A DNA stretch of 64,000 bases. Source: Escherichia coli. GTDB taxonomy: Bacteria; Pseudomonadota; Gammaproteobacteria; Enterobacterales; Enterobacteriaceae. Position 1 is the stretch's first letter. The number at the start of each line of letters is the position of its first letter. This document shows positions 9,413-55,545 of the stretch, one piece after another. The notes below the pieces were generated by a model, which was given only the letters and a program-made list of their open reading frames with translations, was not told where the DNA came from and did no database searches. The stretch is from NCBI RefSeq assembly GCF_011045215.1, contig NZ_CP049201.1, one strand, 5' to 3'. The translations under genes and the position numbers were made by a program.

Positions 9413-9587
9413 AAAACTTTCCCTGCAATGTTTATGGAGTAAAGCGACCGCAACAATCTTAACAAATAATCTCAATGTTGCGCTCAGGTGAATCGCGCCA
9501 GCAAATTGCGGATTATCCTGAAATGCGTTTCTCACTTGCCCGACATATGCGTAAAATGAGCGGCAGATTAAAAAAGGATAGTGACGT

Positions 9588-10961
9588 ATGCGCATTCATA
9601 TTTTAGGAATTTGTGGCACGTTTATGGGCGGTCTGGCGATGCTGGCGCGCCAGTTAGGCCATGAAGTAACGGGTTCGGACGCCAATGTGTATCCGCCGAT
9701 GAGCACCTTACTTGAGAAGCAATGCATTGAACTGATTCAGGGTTACGATGCCAGCCAGCTCGATCCGCAGCCGGATCTGGTGATTATTGGCAACGCCATG
9801 ACCCGTGGAAATCCGTGTGTGGAAGCGGTACTGGAAAAAAACATCCCTTATATGTCAGGTCCACAGTGGCTGCACGATTTTGTGCTGCGCGACCGCTGGG
9901 TGCTGGCCGTTGCCGGTACACACGGCAAAACCACCACCGCGGGAATGGCGACCTGGATTCTGGAACAGTGCGGTTACAAACCGGGATTTGTGATCGGCGG
10001 TGTGCCGGGGAACTTTGAGGTTTCGGCTCGTCTGGGCGAAAGCGACTTCTTTGTTATCGAAGCGGATGAGTATGACTGCGCCTTCTTCGACAAACGCTCT
10101 AAATTTGTCCATTACTGCCCGCGTACGCTGATCCTCAACAACCTTGAGTTCGATCACGCCGATATCTTTGACGACCTGAAAGCGATCCAGAAACAGTTCC
10201 ACCATCTGGTGCGTATCGTTCCGGGGCAGGGCCGTATTATCTGGCCGGAAAACGACATCAACCTGAAACAGACCATGGCGATGGGCTGCTGGAGCGAGCA
10301 GGAGCTGGTGGGCGAGCAGGGTCACTGGCAGGCGAAAAAGCTAACCACTGACGCTTCTGAATGGGAAGTCTTGTTGGATGGCGAAAAAGTGGGCGAAGTG
10401 AAATGGTCGCTGGTAGGCGAACATAATATGCACAATGGCCTGATGGCGATTGCGGCGGCTCGCCATGTTGGTGTAGCGCCGGCAGATGCCGCTAACGCGC
10501 TGGGTTCGTTTATTAATGCTCGTCGCCGTCTGGAGTTGCGTGGTGAAGCGAATGGCGTCACGGTATATGACGATTTCGCCCATCACCCAACGGCGATTCT
10601 GGCAACGCTGGCGGCGCTGCGTGGCAAAGTTGGTGGTACGGCGCGCATTATTGCTGTGCTGGAACCGCGCTCGAATACCATGAAAATGGGGATCTGCAAA
10701 GACGATCTGGCACCTTCATTAGGTCGTGCCGATGAAGTCTTCCTGCTGCAACCGGCGCATATTCCGTGGCAGGTGGCAGAAGTGGCAGAAGCCTGCGTTC
10801 AGCCTGCACACTGGAGTGGCGATGTGGATACGCTGGCAGATATGGTGGTGAAAACCGCTCAGCCTGGCGACCATATTCTGGTGATGAGCAACGGCGGTTT
10901 TGGTGGGATCCATCAGAAACTGCTGGATGGTCTGGCGAAGAAGGCGGAAGCCGCGCAGTAA
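9588..10961 (+). CDS. mpl: UDP-N-acetylmuramate:L-alanyl-gamma-D-glutamyl-meso-diaminopimelate ligase
   Basis: 457 aa Mur ligase family, GTHGKTTT P-loop. Confidence 0.9.
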
Positions 10962-10984
10962 TTCGGCCTCAGCCTGAGATAGCA

Positions 10985-11090
10985 TTGCCGGATAAGGCGT
11001 TTACGCCGCATCCGGCATTTGAGCATAGTGCCTGATGCGACGCTTGATGCGTCTTATCAGGCCTACAGGTGCACCGCATCCGGCAAACCA
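10985..11090. repeat. REP elements
   Basis: GCCGGATAAGGCGTTTACGCCGCATCCGGC and CCTGATGCGACGCTTGATGCGTCTTATCAGGCCTAC palindromic units after mpl. Confidence 0.8.
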
Positions 11091-11111
11091 TACTCACATC
11101 AACAACGAAAA

Positions 11112-11663
11112 TTACCCTTCGTTCTCCGCTAACTCGCGCAGATACTGGAAAATCTGGCGTGCGGATTTCGGCGGCTTATTCCCTTCTTTCTCTTTCTTCG
11201 CGTTGCGGATCAGCGTACGCAGTTGCTGACGATCGGCATCGGGCCACAGATTTAATACCTCAGCGATGGCGTCATCACCTTGATCGATCAGACGATCGCG
11301 CAGGTTTTCCAGTTTATGGAACAGCACCACCTGCTGGTTGTGACGGTTTTTCAGCTTATCCAGCGCCTGACGAATAGGCTCTACGTCGCGCTGGCGCAGC
11401 ATCTTACCGATGAGCTGCAACTGGCGGCGGCGACCTTCCATCTTAATACGCTGGGCGAGCTCAATAGCCGCGCGCAGATCCGCATCTAACGGGATCTTAT
11501 CCAGCGCGTTTTTCCCCAGATCAACAATTTCCGCGCCAAGGCGTTTTAGCTCCTCGGCATCACGTTTAATTTCACTTTTACTGACCCAGATAATTTCATC
11601 GTCTTCGTCTTCGATGTCATCACCGGGAACGTCGTCGAGCCAGTCTTCGGGCTGCTTAGTCAT
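11112..11663 (-). CDS. yjgA: Ribosome-associated protein YjgA (DUF615)
   Basis: 183 aa acidic N-terminus, conserved synteny next to pmbA. Confidence 0.85.
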
Positions 11664-45182: not shown

Positions 45183-45267
45183 GCCGAAGTGGCGAAATCG
45201 GTAGACGCAGTTGATTCAAAATCAACCGTAGAAATACGTGCCGGTTCGAGTCCGGCCTTCGGCACCA
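45183..45267 (+). tRNA. leuX: tRNA-Leu (anticodon CAA)
   Basis: 85-nt sequence GCCGAAGTGGCGAAATCGGTAGACGCAGTTGATTCAAAATCAACC...GGTTCGAGTCCGGCCTTCGGCACCA; anticodon loop TTCAAAA; long variable arm; CCA end. Confidence 0.93.
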
Positions 45268-46794: not shown

Positions 46795-47934
46795 ATGTCC
46801 ACAATTAACCCCGCAATTTTTTCTTTTTTCTCTGGTTCAGGATTTCTTGATCTTGGATTTGAAAAAAATGGTTATGAAGTGGTTTTCGTGAATGAATACC
46901 ATGCTCCGTTTATGGATGCATATAAACATTCGAGGAAAAAATTAAATATAGCACCACCTCGTTTTGGGTATGCAGAGTGCAGTATTGAAGATGTAGAACA
47001 TGAAAAAATTAAGTCTTCTATGCTTCAACTTAAAAATGAGGGGCGATTGACTGGATTTATTGGTGGTCCACCATGCCCGGATTTCTCTGTAGCGGGTAAA
47101 AATAAAGGTCGAGATGGTGAAAACGGTCGGCTTTCACAAAGCTATATTGATATCATTCTTGAAATGAAACCAGATTTCTTTCTTTTTGAGAATGTTAAAG
47201 GTCTATACCGTACCAGTAAACATAGGGAATTTTTTGACCATTTAAAAACTCAATTAGAATCGGTTGGTTATTGTTTGCATGAAAAACTAATAAATTCTAT
47301 TGAATATGGTGCTCCTCAAGATAGGCAACGAATCATATTGATTGGTTTCCTTGATGAAAAATATGCAAGCCAATTCAATTGGGGGCAAAGAGTCTACCCT
47401 GAAAGAACTGCATTTGAATATAAATGGCCGACGACAAACCAATTTTCAGAAAACACTTCTGTTATAAAACCAAAGGGTATCCCAGAAGAGTTAACAGTAG
47501 AGCATTGGTTCAAGAAAAACCAGGTTGATAATCATCCAAATGCAAAGCATGTATTCGCGGCAAGAGCAGGGCTTGCGAGGTTTTTGACTGTCGAAGAAGG
47601 GGATGATAGTAAAAAATCCTATAAAAGGTTACATAGATGGAGATTTTCACCAACTGCTGCTTACGGTAATAATGAGGTACATTTACATCCTTATAAACCA
47701 AGAAGAATTACTGTTGCCGAAGCATTAGCAATTCAGTCTTTACCAAAAGAATTTGAATTACCTGCTTATATGACTCTGTCTAATATGTTTAAAACTGTCG
47801 GTAACGGTGTACCCTACTTAGCAGCGGCCGGTATTGCCAAATCTATTATAGAGCATTTAGGAATCGAATATGAGAGTAACTGCGGCGAACTTAGCACAGG
47901 CGATTGCCAATCTACCAAGAAACACGCAGTTTAA
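46795..47934 (+). CDS. DNA (cytosine-5)-methyltransferase
   Basis: 379 aa with C5-MTase motifs: I FSGSGFLDLGFE (FxGxG), IV GGPPCPDFS (Pro-Cys), VI FLFENV, VIII QDRQR, X GNGVP near C-terminus; AT-rich. Confidence 0.85.
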   Translation: MSTINPAIFSFFSGSGFLDLGFEKNGYEVVFVNEYHAPFMDAYKHSRKKLNIAPPRFGYAECSIEDVEHEKIKSSMLQLKNEGRLTGFIGGPPCPDFSVAGKNKGRDGENGRLSQSYIDIILEMKPDFFLFENVKGLYRTSKHREFFDHLKTQLESVGYCLHEKLINSIEYGAPQDRQRIILIGFLDEKYASQFNWGQRVYPERTAFEYKWPTTNQFSENTSVIKPKGIPEELTVEHWFKKNQVDNHPNAKHVFAARAGLARFLTVEEGDDSKKSYKRLHRWRFSPTAAYGNNEVHLHPYKPRRITVAEALAIQSLPKEFELPAYMTLSNMFKTVGNGVPYLAAAGIAKSIIEHLGIEYESNCGELSTGDCQSTKKHAV

Positions 47935-48946
47935 TTATGTAAATGTGCGAAATTCGGGAAGAATCATTGTAACGAATGTTCAACTTCCCGAAGGCCCAAT
48001 AGAATTCAAAAGATTCGATCCAAAAAAGGGTGAGACACTGCATAGTTCTAAATCGGAAAGCATCTCCACACAAATGTTGTGGAGATTGGCTAATGCTTTA
48101 CAGGAAGATGTCCCTGTCAATTTGGATCGTATTTTTGGTGCAAGCTATAATACACGTGCTGTTCTCGAAAGCCTTTTGGCCCATACTCCTGAGTTTTATT
48201 GGTGTAAGCTTGATCGCCTTGAGGTAATGAACACTCAGAAAAATATTAAAAAAGGTCACAAGCACCTTATTTATAGACCAAATGACCCACATGAAAATGG
48301 TGTAGCAATAGAACATACTACTAATGTTATAATTTCTGAAATGAATTTAGATGTTGTCCATCAATCAGTTGATATAGAGACAATCTTACCTACTAAAGGA
48401 ATGACGATTGAGGAAAAAAGACGTCATGCACAAATTCAAATCTCATTAGTAAAAATAGGTCATTACTTAGGTTATCGGACATGGGTTGCAGCAAATGATC
48501 GTGGCCTCCAATATAATGGAAAATCTATAGCCCAAATGGATGGGGTCATAGATAATTTAAGAAATGAACAAGTGCTTCAATCATATGATAAAGCTATCAA
48601 AGAAGCTCGGCTTATAGATTGTATTTGGTTTCGAAATGGAAAATTAATGCCTGCAGTTATGGAGATTGAGCATAGCACTGGTATTAAAAGTGGTTTGGTA
48701 AGGATGAAACAATTTTATGATTATGCACCACAGTTAAAAAATATACGTTGGACCGTTGTGGCACCTGACGAATATAGAAATAAAGTTATAGAGTTTTCTA
48801 ATATGCCACAATTTAAAGAATTAGATACTCGATTCTTCCCCTATTCTGCTGTAGAGGAACTCTATTCATTATGTGCAAGAAGGAATCCTCAAGGAATTAC
48901 AGACGATTTCCTTGATGCATTCATGGAAAAGTGTGTGACACATTAA
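47870..48946 (+). CDS. Putative nuclease-like partner of the methyltransferase (candidate restriction endonuclease); function inferred
   Basis: 358-aa ORF; ATG with AGGA SD overlaps MTase 3' end by 65 nt (translational coupling); C-terminal D...E-x-E-x(6)-K-like stretch (LIDCIWF...VMEIEHSTGIK) compatible with a PD-(D/E)xK core. Confidence 0.45.
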   Translation: MRVTAANLAQAIANLPRNTQFNYVNVRNSGRIIVTNVQLPEGPIEFKRFDPKKGETLHSSKSESISTQMLWRLANALQEDVPVNLDRIFGASYNTRAVLESLLAHTPEFYWCKLDRLEVMNTQKNIKKGHKHLIYRPNDPHENGVAIEHTTNVIISEMNLDVVHQSVDIETILPTKGMTIEEKRRHAQIQISLVKIGHYLGYRTWVAANDRGLQYNGKSIAQMDGVIDNLRNEQVLQSYDKAIKEARLIDCIWFRNGKLMPAVMEIEHSTGIKSGLVRMKQFYDYAPQLKNIRWTVVAPDEYRNKVIEFSNMPQFKELDTRFFPYSAVEELYSLCARRNPQGITDDFLDAFMEKCVTH

Positions 48947-49893: not shown

Positions 49894-50058
49894 CTATAAA
49901 TCATCATGCAATTGTCAAGGGGATGGTGAAAATATTTTTCTTCCCCTAAATTTCTCTCCATTCTTTCCTCATCTAAATTTTCAGTTATCAGCACTCCCTT
50001 CATAGATACAAATCTGTGTGGCTAATATCTCCTTAACGGAAGCGGAGGAGACAGCCAA

Positions 50059-50265
50059 ATGAATACAACCAATCAAAGCTTAATTCGTTTACCAGAAGTC
50101 TTGAAACGAACTGGTTTCGGCAAGGCCTGGATCTATCGTCTGATCAGTGAAGGTCGGTTTCCGGCACCCGTTAAGATCGGAATTCGTGCCGTTGCTTTTG
50201 TCGAGAGTGAAGTTGACGAGTGGATTCTATCAGTTATCGAAACAAACAGAATTAAAGTTGCTTAA
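50059..50265 (+). CDS. alpA: AlpA-family transcriptional regulator / excisionase-like DNA-binding protein
   Basis: 68 aa; LIRLPEVLKRTGFGKAWIYRLISEGRFPAPVKIG...VAFVESEVDEWI matches the AlpA/MerR-like HTH of prophage CP4-57-type regulators. Confidence 0.85.
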   Translation: MNTTNQSLIRLPEVLKRTGFGKAWIYRLISEGRFPAPVKIGIRAVAFVESEVDEWILSVIETNRIKVA

Positions 50266-50286
50266 TTAAACCTAGGAGAGATTTTT

Positions 50287-50601
50287 ATGAATATCGAAGA
50301 ATTTATGAATGAAGAAAACCATATGTGCAATTTAGGCGAGGATCTTTTTTGCAAGATCTTCGAACCCGGAGCGATTTATGATTTGCCGAATAGCGATTTT
50401 AATAAAGAAATCATTTACTGGCTCAGTCAGTATCTTGTCGGAAATTTGAGACAACCTTTAGACGCGATCTCTGAGCTTGATATTTTCGAGCAGTTTTATG
50501 TTTACGAGACATGGTTCTCGCTAATTAAATGCCCAGATGAAATTAGAAATTTATCGAAACGGATAATTCGATATCAGATTGGGTTAAAAACCATTCTTTG
50601 A
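50287..50601 (+). CDS. Hypothetical protein (104 aa)
   Basis: ORF immediately downstream of alpA, 21-nt gap. Confidence 0.5.
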   Translation: MNIEEFMNEENHMCNLGEDLFCKIFEPGAIYDLPNSDFNKEIIYWLSQYLVGNLRQPLDAISELDIFEQFYVYETWFSLIKCPDEIRNLSKRIIRYQIGLKTIL

Positions 50602-50732
50602 AAGAACCTATATTTAGTACTATTTTGTAAATTGCATTGTTGAAATGATAGTGCTATTTGCTTTTTGATTTACAAAACATCTTTAACTTCTTTTAAAATA
50701 ATGGGTTAACTATTTTAAGTGAAAAGAAAGGA

Positions 50733-50762
50733 TTATAATATCCCTCTAGAGGGATATTATAA
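50733..50762. promoter_or_regulatory. 30-bp perfect palindrome upstream of the recombinase operon (candidate operator or recombination site)
   Basis: TTATAATATCCCTCTAGAGGGATATTATAA is perfectly self-complementary; lies about 130 bp upstream of the first recombinase gene in an AT-rich leader. Confidence 0.5.
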
Positions 50763-50893
50763 ATTTTCGGCCGGTATGCGTCATTGTAAAAGGGAATAAT
50801 ATTAAATTCAGGAAAATATATTTGTAAATTGCTTATGTTATATGCTTTATTTATTTTCACTGACAATTAAATGTAAATAGAGGCGATATTACT

Positions 50894-52156
50894 TTGAAAT
50901 ATAAAATAAAAAGATTGAAGAATAAAGATGGTATCAGAAGTTGCATTATTATTAATGAGAGCAACGGATTACCCTTGGTTTATTCTAACTTATATATGAG
51001 TGTTATTTCACGAACAAATAGCTATTCATTTTCAACAATGGAAGCAATAGCAAATGCTTTGCTTTTATTTGAAAGATATAATGCTTACATGAATGTGGAT
51101 GTTTTTGATATGGTAAATCCTGACATCGAAAAACTTGTCTCGAACAAAGGATATTTATTCGGGTTAATGAATGCCCTTTCTTACAGAAACGACTTAGAGA
51201 ATGTTACAAGCATTCTTAAAGAACAACATGTCTCTAAAAGAACCCTTTATTTCAAGATAATGACAATTGAAAATTACGTCAAATGGTTTTTTGATAACAT
51301 TGCTATCAATAATATTGATTCTTCTCGTTATGAAGCAATCAGTCGAGCATTTGATTTTATAAAGCCAAGAATAGAGAACGGAAAGAATTACAATATTGAA
51401 AGCGAAAGCAAATCATTGACAAATGAGCAAGTTACAACTTTGACTGATATGGTAAGTGTTAAATCTAAGATTAATCCATTTTCGGAGCATGTAAGGTTTC
51501 GAAATAATCTAATAATTAAAATTTTATTAGAGACAGGTATTAGGGGAGGGGAACTACTTAATATTAAGTTGGTTGATTTTGACTATGTCCACAAAAGTCT
51601 ATGCATAGTAAGAAGGCCAGATGATCAAAACGAACCACGATTAAGGCAACCATTGGTTAAAACTTTAGAAAGAAAAATACCATTGAGTATAGAATTGACT
51701 GAGTTAATACAGAATTATATTAGTGATTTCAGAGGTAAGCAGTGTCATGCAGGGGAGCATGACTATCTGCTTGTTACTCATAGCAGTAAAGGTCAATTAG
51801 GTCATGCATTAACTATTTCAGGTTATCAGAAAATTTTCGAACAAATTAGGAAAAATAGTAATGTTTTGAGCGATATTGTGGGGCATTCGCTAAGACATAC
51901 TTGGAATGTGAAATTCTCAGAAATGATGCTCATGAATTCGAACTCTCAGGAATATATTACTTATGAGAAAGTAAGAAATTATCTTATGGGGTGGAAAAAG
52001 AATAGTACAACCTCAGATATCTATAACCAAGCATTTATAGCACAAGAAAGCCGAAAAATAATGGCTGTTATTAATCCACTCAAAAACATAGTAGAGGACA
52101 AATCCAATGTTTCAAACTCTAAGAAAGCTACAAGAAAGTCAATATTCGGTTTTTGA
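50894..52156 (+). CDS. Tyrosine recombinase 1 of a three-recombinase operon
   Basis: 420-aa ORF (TTG at 50894; first ATG at 50996); conserved ETGIRGGELLNIKLVDF (box I Arg), HSLRHTW (HxxR) and ...SDIYNQ (Tyr) catalytic elements. Confidence 0.75.
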   Translation: MKYKIKRLKNKDGIRSCIIINESNGLPLVYSNLYMSVISRTNSYSFSTMEAIANALLLFERYNAYMNVDVFDMVNPDIEKLVSNKGYLFGLMNALSYRNDLENVTSILKEQHVSKRTLYFKIMTIENYVKWFFDNIAINNIDSSRYEAISRAFDFIKPRIENGKNYNIESESKSLTNEQVTTLTDMVSVKSKINPFSEHVRFRNNLIIKILLETGIRGGELLNIKLVDFDYVHKSLCIVRRPDDQNEPRLRQPLVKTLERKIPLSIELTELIQNYISDFRGKQCHAGEHDYLLVTHSSKGQLGHALTISGYQKIFEQIRKNSNVLSDIVGHSLRHTWNVKFSEMMLMNSNSQEYITYEKVRNYLMGWKKNSTTSDIYNQAFIAQESRKIMAVINPLKNIVEDKSNVSNSKKATRKSIFGF

Positions 52157-55460: not shown

Positions 55461-55545
55461 TATTTTGATAGGTTTTATCTATTGACAGGTGATGTTAATA
55501 TGGTATTTGTAAATATAGTCAGGAAGACAAAACTAACTTGCAAGG

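Follow-up and report, generated by a model that had tools for sequence, protein, structure and literature searches.

The stretch of Escherichia coli chromosome analyzed here (64,000 nt of contig NZ_CP049201.1, assembly GCF_011045215.1), referred to below as the window and numbered from its first nucleotide, includes a low-GC island that starts at the tRNA-Leu(CAA) gene leuX (45183-45267). The first product of the island is a P4-type integrase; then come a cytosine methyltransferase, a DUF6387 protein, an AlpA-family protein of 68 aa and the product of a 104-aa ORF. After a gap of 290 bp there follow four overlapping or abutting genes for proteins of 420, 441, 535 and 132 aa (Table 1). A relaxase gene lies further along the island, beyond this four-gene cassette. 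Near-identical islands, bounded by an 18-bp leuX repeat, are found in ETEC strains (99%) and in O55:H7 (91%). The region between the integrase and the DUF6387 gene (46795-48946) holds the C5-cytosine methyltransferase gene and an overlapping 358-aa ORF, which are both missing from the O55:H7 island and may form a restriction-modification pair.

The same four-gene architecture is present in all relatives. Its designation as a recombinase trio in the preliminary description is borne out by Pfam for the first two genes, whereas the third is recombinase-like by motif only. No match to ORF3 was obtained among Pfam or PDB sequences, either with the single sequence or with a profile; the profile aligns weakly with recombinase 1, though box I is matched, and an invariant arginine (R218) lies within the PSRISE motif. 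The predicted model of ORF4 is confident (pLDDT 81), but a Foldseek comparison of it with PDB gave nothing below E = 1 and no recognizable DNA-binding fold. The ATG start codon of recombinase 1 in the relatives corresponds to 50888-50890, which reads ATT in the window, and the next possible start is TTG at 50894. The gene may therefore be poorly translated or start two codons later.

Table 1. Features of the palindrome region and the four-gene cassette (window numbering).
Feature	Position	Strand	Basis or remark
AlpA	50059-50265	+	AlpA-family match; 68 aa, helix-turn-helix only
104-aa ORF	50287-50601	+	upstream neighbor; no co-variation with the palindrome
TGTAAA box 1 (TTTTGTAAATTGC)	50623-50635	+	alignment A3
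TGTAAA box 2, inverted (TTTACAAAA on the + strand)	50669-50677	-	alignment A3
Second, imperfect inverted repeat upstream of the palindrome, TTAAAATAAT-gggtta-ACTATTTTAA	50693-50718		repeat search
Imperfect inverted repeat of 12 bp (8/12) on either side of the 6-bp crossover interval, TATTTTAAGTGA-AAAGAA-AGGATTATAATA	50711-50740		read from sequence
Crossover interval AAAGAA, 20-25 bp left of the dyad center	50723-50728		homologous position of the switches in chimeras
Perfect palindrome, halves TTATAATATCCCTCT and AGAGGGATATTATAA	50733-50762		read and inverted-repeat search; kept in relatives
Invariant TAAT / ATTA arm blocks	50736-50739 / 50756-50759		alignment A3
Invariant 12-bp core CCCTCTAGAGGG	50742-50753		alignment A3 and sequences of relatives
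TGTAAA box between palindrome and operon	50785-50790	+	read from sequence
TGTAAA box 3 (ATTTGTAAATTGC), invariant block	50820-50834	+	alignment A3
TGTAAA box 4, then ribosome-binding site (AAATGTAAATAGAGG)	50870-50884	+	alignment A3
Recombinase 1 (YR1), 420 aa	50888-52156	+	Phage_integrase domain (Pfam); relatives
Recombinase 2 (YR2), 441 aa	52107-53432	+	Phage_integrase domain (Pfam)
ORF3, 535 aa	53445-55052	+	invariant recombinase-type motifs PSRISE, SHQIRH, VYDH
ORF4, 132 aa	55062-55460	+	small helical N-terminal domain and 40-residue helix; the exchangeable cassette ends on the right at its stop codon

The 30-bp perfect palindrome reported in the preliminary description is read upstream of the cassette as TTATAATATCCCTCTAGAGGGATATTATAA, an inverted repeat of 15+15 nt with a spacer of 0, centered on CTAG; it stops at 30 bp because an A is found at 50732 as well as at 50763. 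No other perfect palindrome of the window is as long, and its length is indeed beyond chance: the analytic expectation for arms of at least 15 nt is about 6e-5, and the longest arm in block-shuffles of the window (n = 300) did not exceed 12 nt. The distance of 131 bp to the TTG at 50894 agrees with the reported spacing of about 130 bp to the first recombinase gene. Neither further copies (at up to 3 mismatches) nor extra half-sites (at up to 2 mismatches) were found in the window. An Rfam scan of 50000-51200 returned nothing meaningful, and a literature search with the palindrome sequence returned XbaI-containing primers only; a control region of this palindromic type at the end of an element is not described in the searched literature. 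Another perfect palindrome of the window, the GC-rich 24-bp sequence AAGGCCGGAGCATGCTCCGGCCTT between A and T runs (34514-34537), looks like an ordinary bidirectional terminator of the core genome.

In O55:H7 the palindrome is identical to that of the window, and substitutions are found in its flanks. It is perfect in all relatives fetched via recombinase 1 (87, 72, 66, 48 and 45% identity) and, across five lineages with recombinase 1 44-100% identical, it is maintained as a perfect palindrome of 26-32 bp, e.g., TATAATTTCCCTCTAGAGGGAAATTATA in Rahnella, TCTAATATCCCTCTAGAGGGATATTAGA in E. coli 135 and ATTTTAATAACCCTCTAGAGGGTTATTAAAAT in a metagenome lineage. Its loss from homologous elements, the observation that the preliminary description had named as the one to speak against it, was not seen down to 44% identity of recombinase 1, and hence this comparison leaves the proposal standing. 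The 12-bp core and the TAAT/ATTA blocks of the arms are invariant, as opposed to 55-70% identity of the intergenic DNA around the palindrome. The two positions between the core and each block vary in compensated pairs only, and changes of the arms are matched on both sides, including a one-base deletion present in both arms of some loci. In the covariation analysis four pairs were changed on both sides, with a score of 0.207 versus 0.091, which was reached by none of 500 shuffles.

The location of the palindrome is equally constant: in 8 loci 139-140 bp separate its center from the start codon. When metagenome contigs were scanned with TAATNNCCCTCTAGAGGGNNATTA, 21 loci were obtained, all of which have the site 140-160 bp upstream of a recombinase 1 homologue and perfect at 28, 30 or 32 bp. 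Five independent short-read contigs were seen to end exactly at the palindrome, as is to be expected of a palindrome longer than the word length of the assembler; the list of such contigs with an end inside it comprises L032, L033, L034, L036, L037 and L065. This assembly artefact will hide the left context of the cassettes in many public assemblies.

The association of the palindrome with the neighboring genes could be traced in islands of mixed composition. IAI1-type islands have the integrase, AlpA (93-94% identity) and the 104-aa ORF (88-96%) in common with the window, with a cassette only about 35% identical, and the palindrome with the CCCTCTAGAGGG core is absent from them; the CUVET19-1937 island, with AlpA of the same 93-94% identity, has no palindrome either. 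The same palindrome core occurs at a metagenome locus where AlpA is 38% and the counterpart of the 104-aa protein 23% identical. In a comparison of the closely related O55:H7 and IAI1 islands the diverged block extends exactly from the stop codon of the 104-aa ORF to that of ORF4. Judged by these comparisons, the palindrome belongs to the four-gene cassette and not to AlpA or the 104-aa ORF. AlpA and the 104-aa protein were rejected as its binders on the grounds of this co-variation, which makes AlpA very unlikely as a specific partner.

Natural chimeras demonstrate where cassettes are joined to the neighboring DNA. In 16 metagenome loci of one lineage, four types of left flank (one of them 63% identical to the others) are found with two to three types of cassette (67% identical to each other) in all combinations. 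The last left-specific site of these loci is located at -26 from the dyad center, and the first cassette-linked sites are located at -19, -16 and -15. The switch lies to the left of the left arm in 14 loci, where both arms accompany the cassette, and inside the dyad in the remaining two (L051 and L061). Another chimera (L043) combines a left flank of the window type (lineage A) with a cassette of the E. coli-135 type (lineage B) and switches between -25 and -21.

Three further loci have a joint at the same border. In metagenome contig Ga0157372_10008323 (L047, 9604-9829) the palindrome has an insertion of about 190 bp exactly at its left foot, with an AGGATT repeat at both sides; the insert includes a complete tRNA-Tyr(GTA) gene and another that is truncated in the T-loop. 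These genes begin about 21 nt past the left foot and face away from the recombinase operon. In a Salmonella ssrA island (L068) the cassette is at the far end and terminates with the palindrome, next to which lies a truncated fimbrial gene; homology begins at -13/-14, and the outer 2 bp of the left arm are gone. When this island was followed to its far end, ssrA was reached and the missing part of the fimbrial gene was not seen. In E. coli XJW9B277 (NZ_CP068041.1, L040), which has a trio-less island of the IAI1 type (lineage C), the break occurs right before a conserved CTAGATC motif. The place of the cassette in this leuX island of the same backbone (9510-11237) is taken by a reverse-strand helix-turn-helix gene and about 1 kb of non-coding DNA.

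Thus, the palindrome is the outer border of an exchangeable module, and re-joining has occurred repeatedly within about 25 bp of its left foot. The joints are scattered over about 25 bp (-25 to -20, -19 to -14, -14/-13 and inside the dyad) and do not coincide at one nucleotide; therefore, a defined site, homologous exchange in a conserved patch and a fragile palindrome fit them about equally. The break in homology between the window and IAI1-type islands had suggested that the cassette is nested where the 104-aa ORF stops. This could not be confirmed: L040 keeps 125 bp past the stop codon of this ORF, and the shallower chimeras break beside the palindrome.

At the opposite border, cargo differs immediately 3' of the last cassette gene; the right end of the element was looked for there and not found. 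In the window a conserved block, TTGATAGGTTTTATCTATTGACAGG, directly follows the stop codon of ORF4. Cargo at 55461-55545 and at the equivalent positions of L044, L055, L042, L046 and L049 varies among cassettes that are 95-99% identical, and the position just behind the final gene resembles a hotspot for cargo. Two Salmonella islands at ssrA (L067 and L068) have the ssrA-proximal integrase and cargo in common and differ in cassette lineage (window type versus E. coli-135 type), which is a further case of cassette swapping.

Several motifs surround the palindrome (Table 1). TGTAAA boxes are found around it in all lineages, including those inserted at ssb described below. The imperfect inverted repeat around the crossover interval overlaps the left arm of the palindrome with its right half and is weaker (6/12) in the L035 lineage; as a core-like arrangement it is speculative. 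In most lineages the arms carry -35-like and -10-like hexamers 16-17 bp apart on both strands: TTAATA-17-TAAAAT (9/12, both strands) in the L035 lineage, TTTATA-17-TATTAT (9/12, - strand) and TTATAA-16-TATTAT (8/12, + strand) in lineage A. Such hexamers were not found in the dyad of the lineage B locus L003. These matches are weak (8-9 of 12), as AT-rich DNA gives, and seven were found in the region versus 5.8 expected. No other promoter-like site of the + strand was found in the window between the dyad and the start codon of recombinase 1.

The reading preferred here, with a probability of roughly 40%, is that the palindrome is a border dyad owned by the cassette: proteins of the cassette would dock on it, and a symmetric promoter-like arrangement overlaps it. 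The dyad would act in cis for the cassette of recombinases 1 and 2, ORF3 and ORF4, at the outer, promoter-proximal border. The docked protein would most likely be encoded by the cassette itself, being either a dimer of the recombinase family or the small helical ORF4 protein. Since the arms carry -35-like and -10-like hexamers on both strands, the bound protein would gate transcription into the operon (autoregulation) as well as outward from the cassette. The DNA 5-10 bp outside the left arm, and sometimes the dyad itself, is the place of natural re-joining of cassette and left flank; the site thus marks, and probably helps to define, the place where the module is cut and joined. With regard to the preliminary description, its observation is confirmed and its interpretation is partly supported. 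A recombination or core site for the recombinase trio agrees with the clustering of joints at the left foot, but not with the position of most joints beside the dyad, nor with the search for a second copy or half-site, which gave nothing beyond chance in the window, the complete O55:H7 island and the Salmonella island L068.

Alternatively, the palindrome could act at the RNA level as a hairpin insulator, i.e., a weak, possibly factor-dependent, bidirectional terminator, which would shield the recombinase operon from read-through of AlpA, the 104-aa ORF or host genes and stop outward transcripts. This is considered rather unlikely, although distant relatives of the cassette give it substance. 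Most of these (23 loci, 23-37% identity) have a different dyad or a hairpin at about the same distance, and at least 10 loci are located directly behind the stop codon of ssb. Relatives behind ssb (L011, L012, L017, L018, L020, L022, L024, L026, L027, L028, L069) come from many Gammaproteobacteria and one Sphingomonas MAG; L017, recorded as Martelella alba, is near-identical to ssb loci of Yersinia and Enterobacteriaceae, which is unexpected for an alphaproteobacterium and suggests contamination or a mislabelled assembly. Comparison with an Aeromonas copy places the element end at the ssb stop codon, within GTTCTGAG-ATTGAC-CTTAGAAC, followed by a TGTAAAG box and then by the hairpin; this implies that the 3' end of ssb is a conserved insertion site with a core such as this sequence. 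A terminator score composed of hairpin energy and T-tract (positive values denote an intrinsic terminator) ranges from +19 to +44 for most of the hairpins behind ssb, on the + strand only (GC stem and T6-7), and about +1 to +6 for two of them. These textbook terminators occupy the equivalent place inside the left end, and attL of SE-6945 combines a 6-bp crossover and a 19-bp terminal motif with a putative transcription termination motif (PMC9345347). Such elements thus repeatedly have a hairpin immediately inside their promoter-proximal end.

In the window the hairpin resembles a Rho-independent terminator in being placed between a conserved purine/A tract (GTGAAAAGAAAGG) and a T tract (AAATTTTCG). 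The predicted RNA hairpin with its A/U extension has -22.7 kcal/mol (z = -2.2), in a looser scan the palindrome comes up as terminator-like, though for the - strand only, and in the Salmonella island L068 the fimbrial gene reads straight into it. However, all four lineages have negative classical scores for both strands (-32 in the window, -20 to -45 in the other three), and the stem, AU-rich at its base, is followed by no more than 3-4 U, by which a canonical Rho-independent terminator is rejected. A pure hairpin also leaves the invariant 12-bp core, the TAAT blocks and the palindromic loop unexplained. The hairpin of the window lineage is therefore not a canonical terminator, and its sequence, not pairing alone, is conserved. 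Since the distant relatives have unrelated hairpins or plain terminators, the requirement there could be for a hairpin and not for a protein site. If the dyad were only a hairpin insulator, the finding would be an ordinary one.

According to a broader and unlikely reading, the dyad could be the structure by which the ends of recombinase-trio cassettes of a so far undescribed enterobacterial lineage are recognized, with a composite site where exchange proceeds beside a hairpin-like dyad that includes a self-repressed symmetric promoter. Cassettes of this lineage would be exchanged whole among the leuX and ssrA islands with P4-type integrase and AlpA. The composite site, on which all three recombinase paralogues would act, would consist of the left part of the imperfect repeat (50711-50722), the 6-bp exchange interval and the two perfect arms. 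Extruded hairpins are the form in which integron attC sites and the attachment site of CTX phage are read, and the dyad could perhaps be recognized in a similar way.

Cores of loxP, FRT and dif consist of inverted arms of about 11-13 bp around a 6-8-bp center, and the FRT spacer contains TCTAGA. The palindrome has the dyad layout and overall size (28-34 bp) of these sites and could be divided as 12+6+12 or 11+8+11 bp, with arms conserved in two blocks. Accordingly, it could be regarded as a true strand-exchange core (attP- or attS-like) with inverted arms of 11-12 bp around a 6-8-bp center, TCTAGA or CTCTAGAG, resembling in size and layout both the lox/FRT/dif cores and the C'-6 bp-C joint of strand-biased elements (PMC10214605). 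On this quite unlikely assumption, the site would be intact and unrecombined because a separate P4-type integrase holds the island in leuX. Free re-assortment of left flanks and cassettes at this place, the hybrids L051 and L061 that switch inside the dyad and the trio-less island L040 of lineage C that breaks right before CTAGATC are consistent with it. Nevertheless, the other 14 of the 16 chimeric loci switch outside the left arm. A fully symmetric central region is unusual in natural recombination sites and gives no directionality; spacers of loxP, FRT and dif are asymmetric, and two sites recombine there, whereas the palindrome has a symmetric center and a single copy, and neither a partner nor a half-site occurs in the complete O55:H7 island. 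Moreover, its center is invariant, while the spacer of strand-biased elements is copied from the flank (PMC10214605).

It is improbable that the palindrome has no dedicated function and that its perfection results from hairpin-templated (template-switch) correction, a fragile palindrome being expected to attract breaks, deletions and insertions. The spread of the joints over about 25 bp, the loss of the outer 2 bp of the left arm in L068, which resembles an illegitimate event, the changes of the arms in concert (matched indel included) and the predicted stability of the single-strand DNA hairpin (-11 kcal/mol, z = -4.8) would fit such an origin. On the other hand, the distance to the start codon is fixed, the core is invariant even where recombinase 1 is only 44% identical, and all 21 metagenome matches are cassette-associated; a neutral break-prone element should decay or vanish.

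The proposal of the preliminary description that the palindrome is an operator for AlpA, extended here to the upstream 104-aa protein, is by far the least probable: the two genes are located just upstream of the palindrome and regulators of the AlpA family bind DNA, but islands with near-identical AlpA and 104-aa proteins lack it, the same core occurs beside strongly diverged ones, and in L068 it is kept, and neither AlpA nor the 104-aa ORF separates it from the fimbrial genes. Pseudomonas aeruginosa AlpA, which governs read-through of a downstream terminator, is an antiterminator of more than 140 aa that reads a 6-bp non-palindromic element inside a promoter (PMC7969949, PMC9371919). The antitermination model was rejected on account of these properties; the P. 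aeruginosa protein is more than twice as long as AlpA of the window, which comprises only a helix-turn-helix.

Among described systems the cassette resembles ginABCD of GInt elements and, more loosely, the SE, GMT and Tn554 systems. The ginABCD operon consists of four genes at the island end, with transcription reported into the operon and outward (Bardaji et al. 2017, PMC5385486). By layout the cassette corresponds to it in gene order, with two tyrosine recombinases, a recombinase-like third protein and a small fourth one that lacks any known domain, and in similar sizes. When compared by description, GinC lacks the first catalytic arginine and ORF3 keeps an arginine in PSRISE, and the ends of GInts are described as imperfect repeats of 10-11 nt with no palindrome (PMC5385486).

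Strand-biased integrative elements (SE) have a 6-bp crossover, a 19-bp terminal motif C and a promoter region directly upstream of intA (PMC9345347, PMC10214605). Their genes are arranged as intA (catalytic), tfp (non-catalytic), intB (catalytic) and srap, and their ends are imperfect inverted repeats of 13-19 bp, C and C', joined around a 6-bp spacer in the circular form (PMC10214605). Common to both are a multi-recombinase operon with a small fourth gene at the extreme end of the element, a short terminal motif with a hairpin just upstream of recombinase 1 and an exchange point just outside the motif, which in the cassette is deduced from the chimeras. However, the order in the window is recombinase, recombinase, recombinase-like and small gene, while the second gene of SE is the non-catalytic one; as the Pfam recombinase domain occurs in genes 1 and 2 and not in gene 3, membership in SE by gene order was rejected. 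The dyad also differs in being perfect, with adjacent arms and an invariant center, in place of two imperfect repeats at opposite ends, and the cassette resides inside a P4-type integrase/AlpA island.

Two other types of element were considered and rejected. Recombinase 2 scored 19 bits with GmtY (NCBIfam cut-off 340), and ORF3 and ORF4 did not match the GMT island models. RIT elements have three catalytic recombinases of 315-410 aa and terminal inverted repeats, as against proteins of 420-535 aa and a conserved fourth gene in the cassette; long inverted repeats flanking the cassette were not seen in the window with arm distances up to 60 searched. In many insertion sequences the transposase promoter is situated inside the terminal inverted repeat, and autoregulation is realized by binding to the end. 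The logic proposed for the cassette would be analogous, with a single border site as both recognition site and promoter/operator, although insertion sequences use DDE transposases and two terminal repeats, in contrast to tyrosine recombinases and a single perfect dyad.

Multi-recombinase elements (GInt, SE, GMT, Tn554-like) move defense and resistance genes, and to our knowledge no DNA binding site has been defined for any of their proteins. The palindrome offers a short, invariant and tractable candidate recognition site at a fixed distance from the operon, and the natural chimeras locate the place where cassettes get re-joined. The P4-integrase/AlpA islands at leuX of E. coli and at ssrA of Salmonella have a second recombination system of modular build, which passes from island to island; this bears on the diversification of defense islands.
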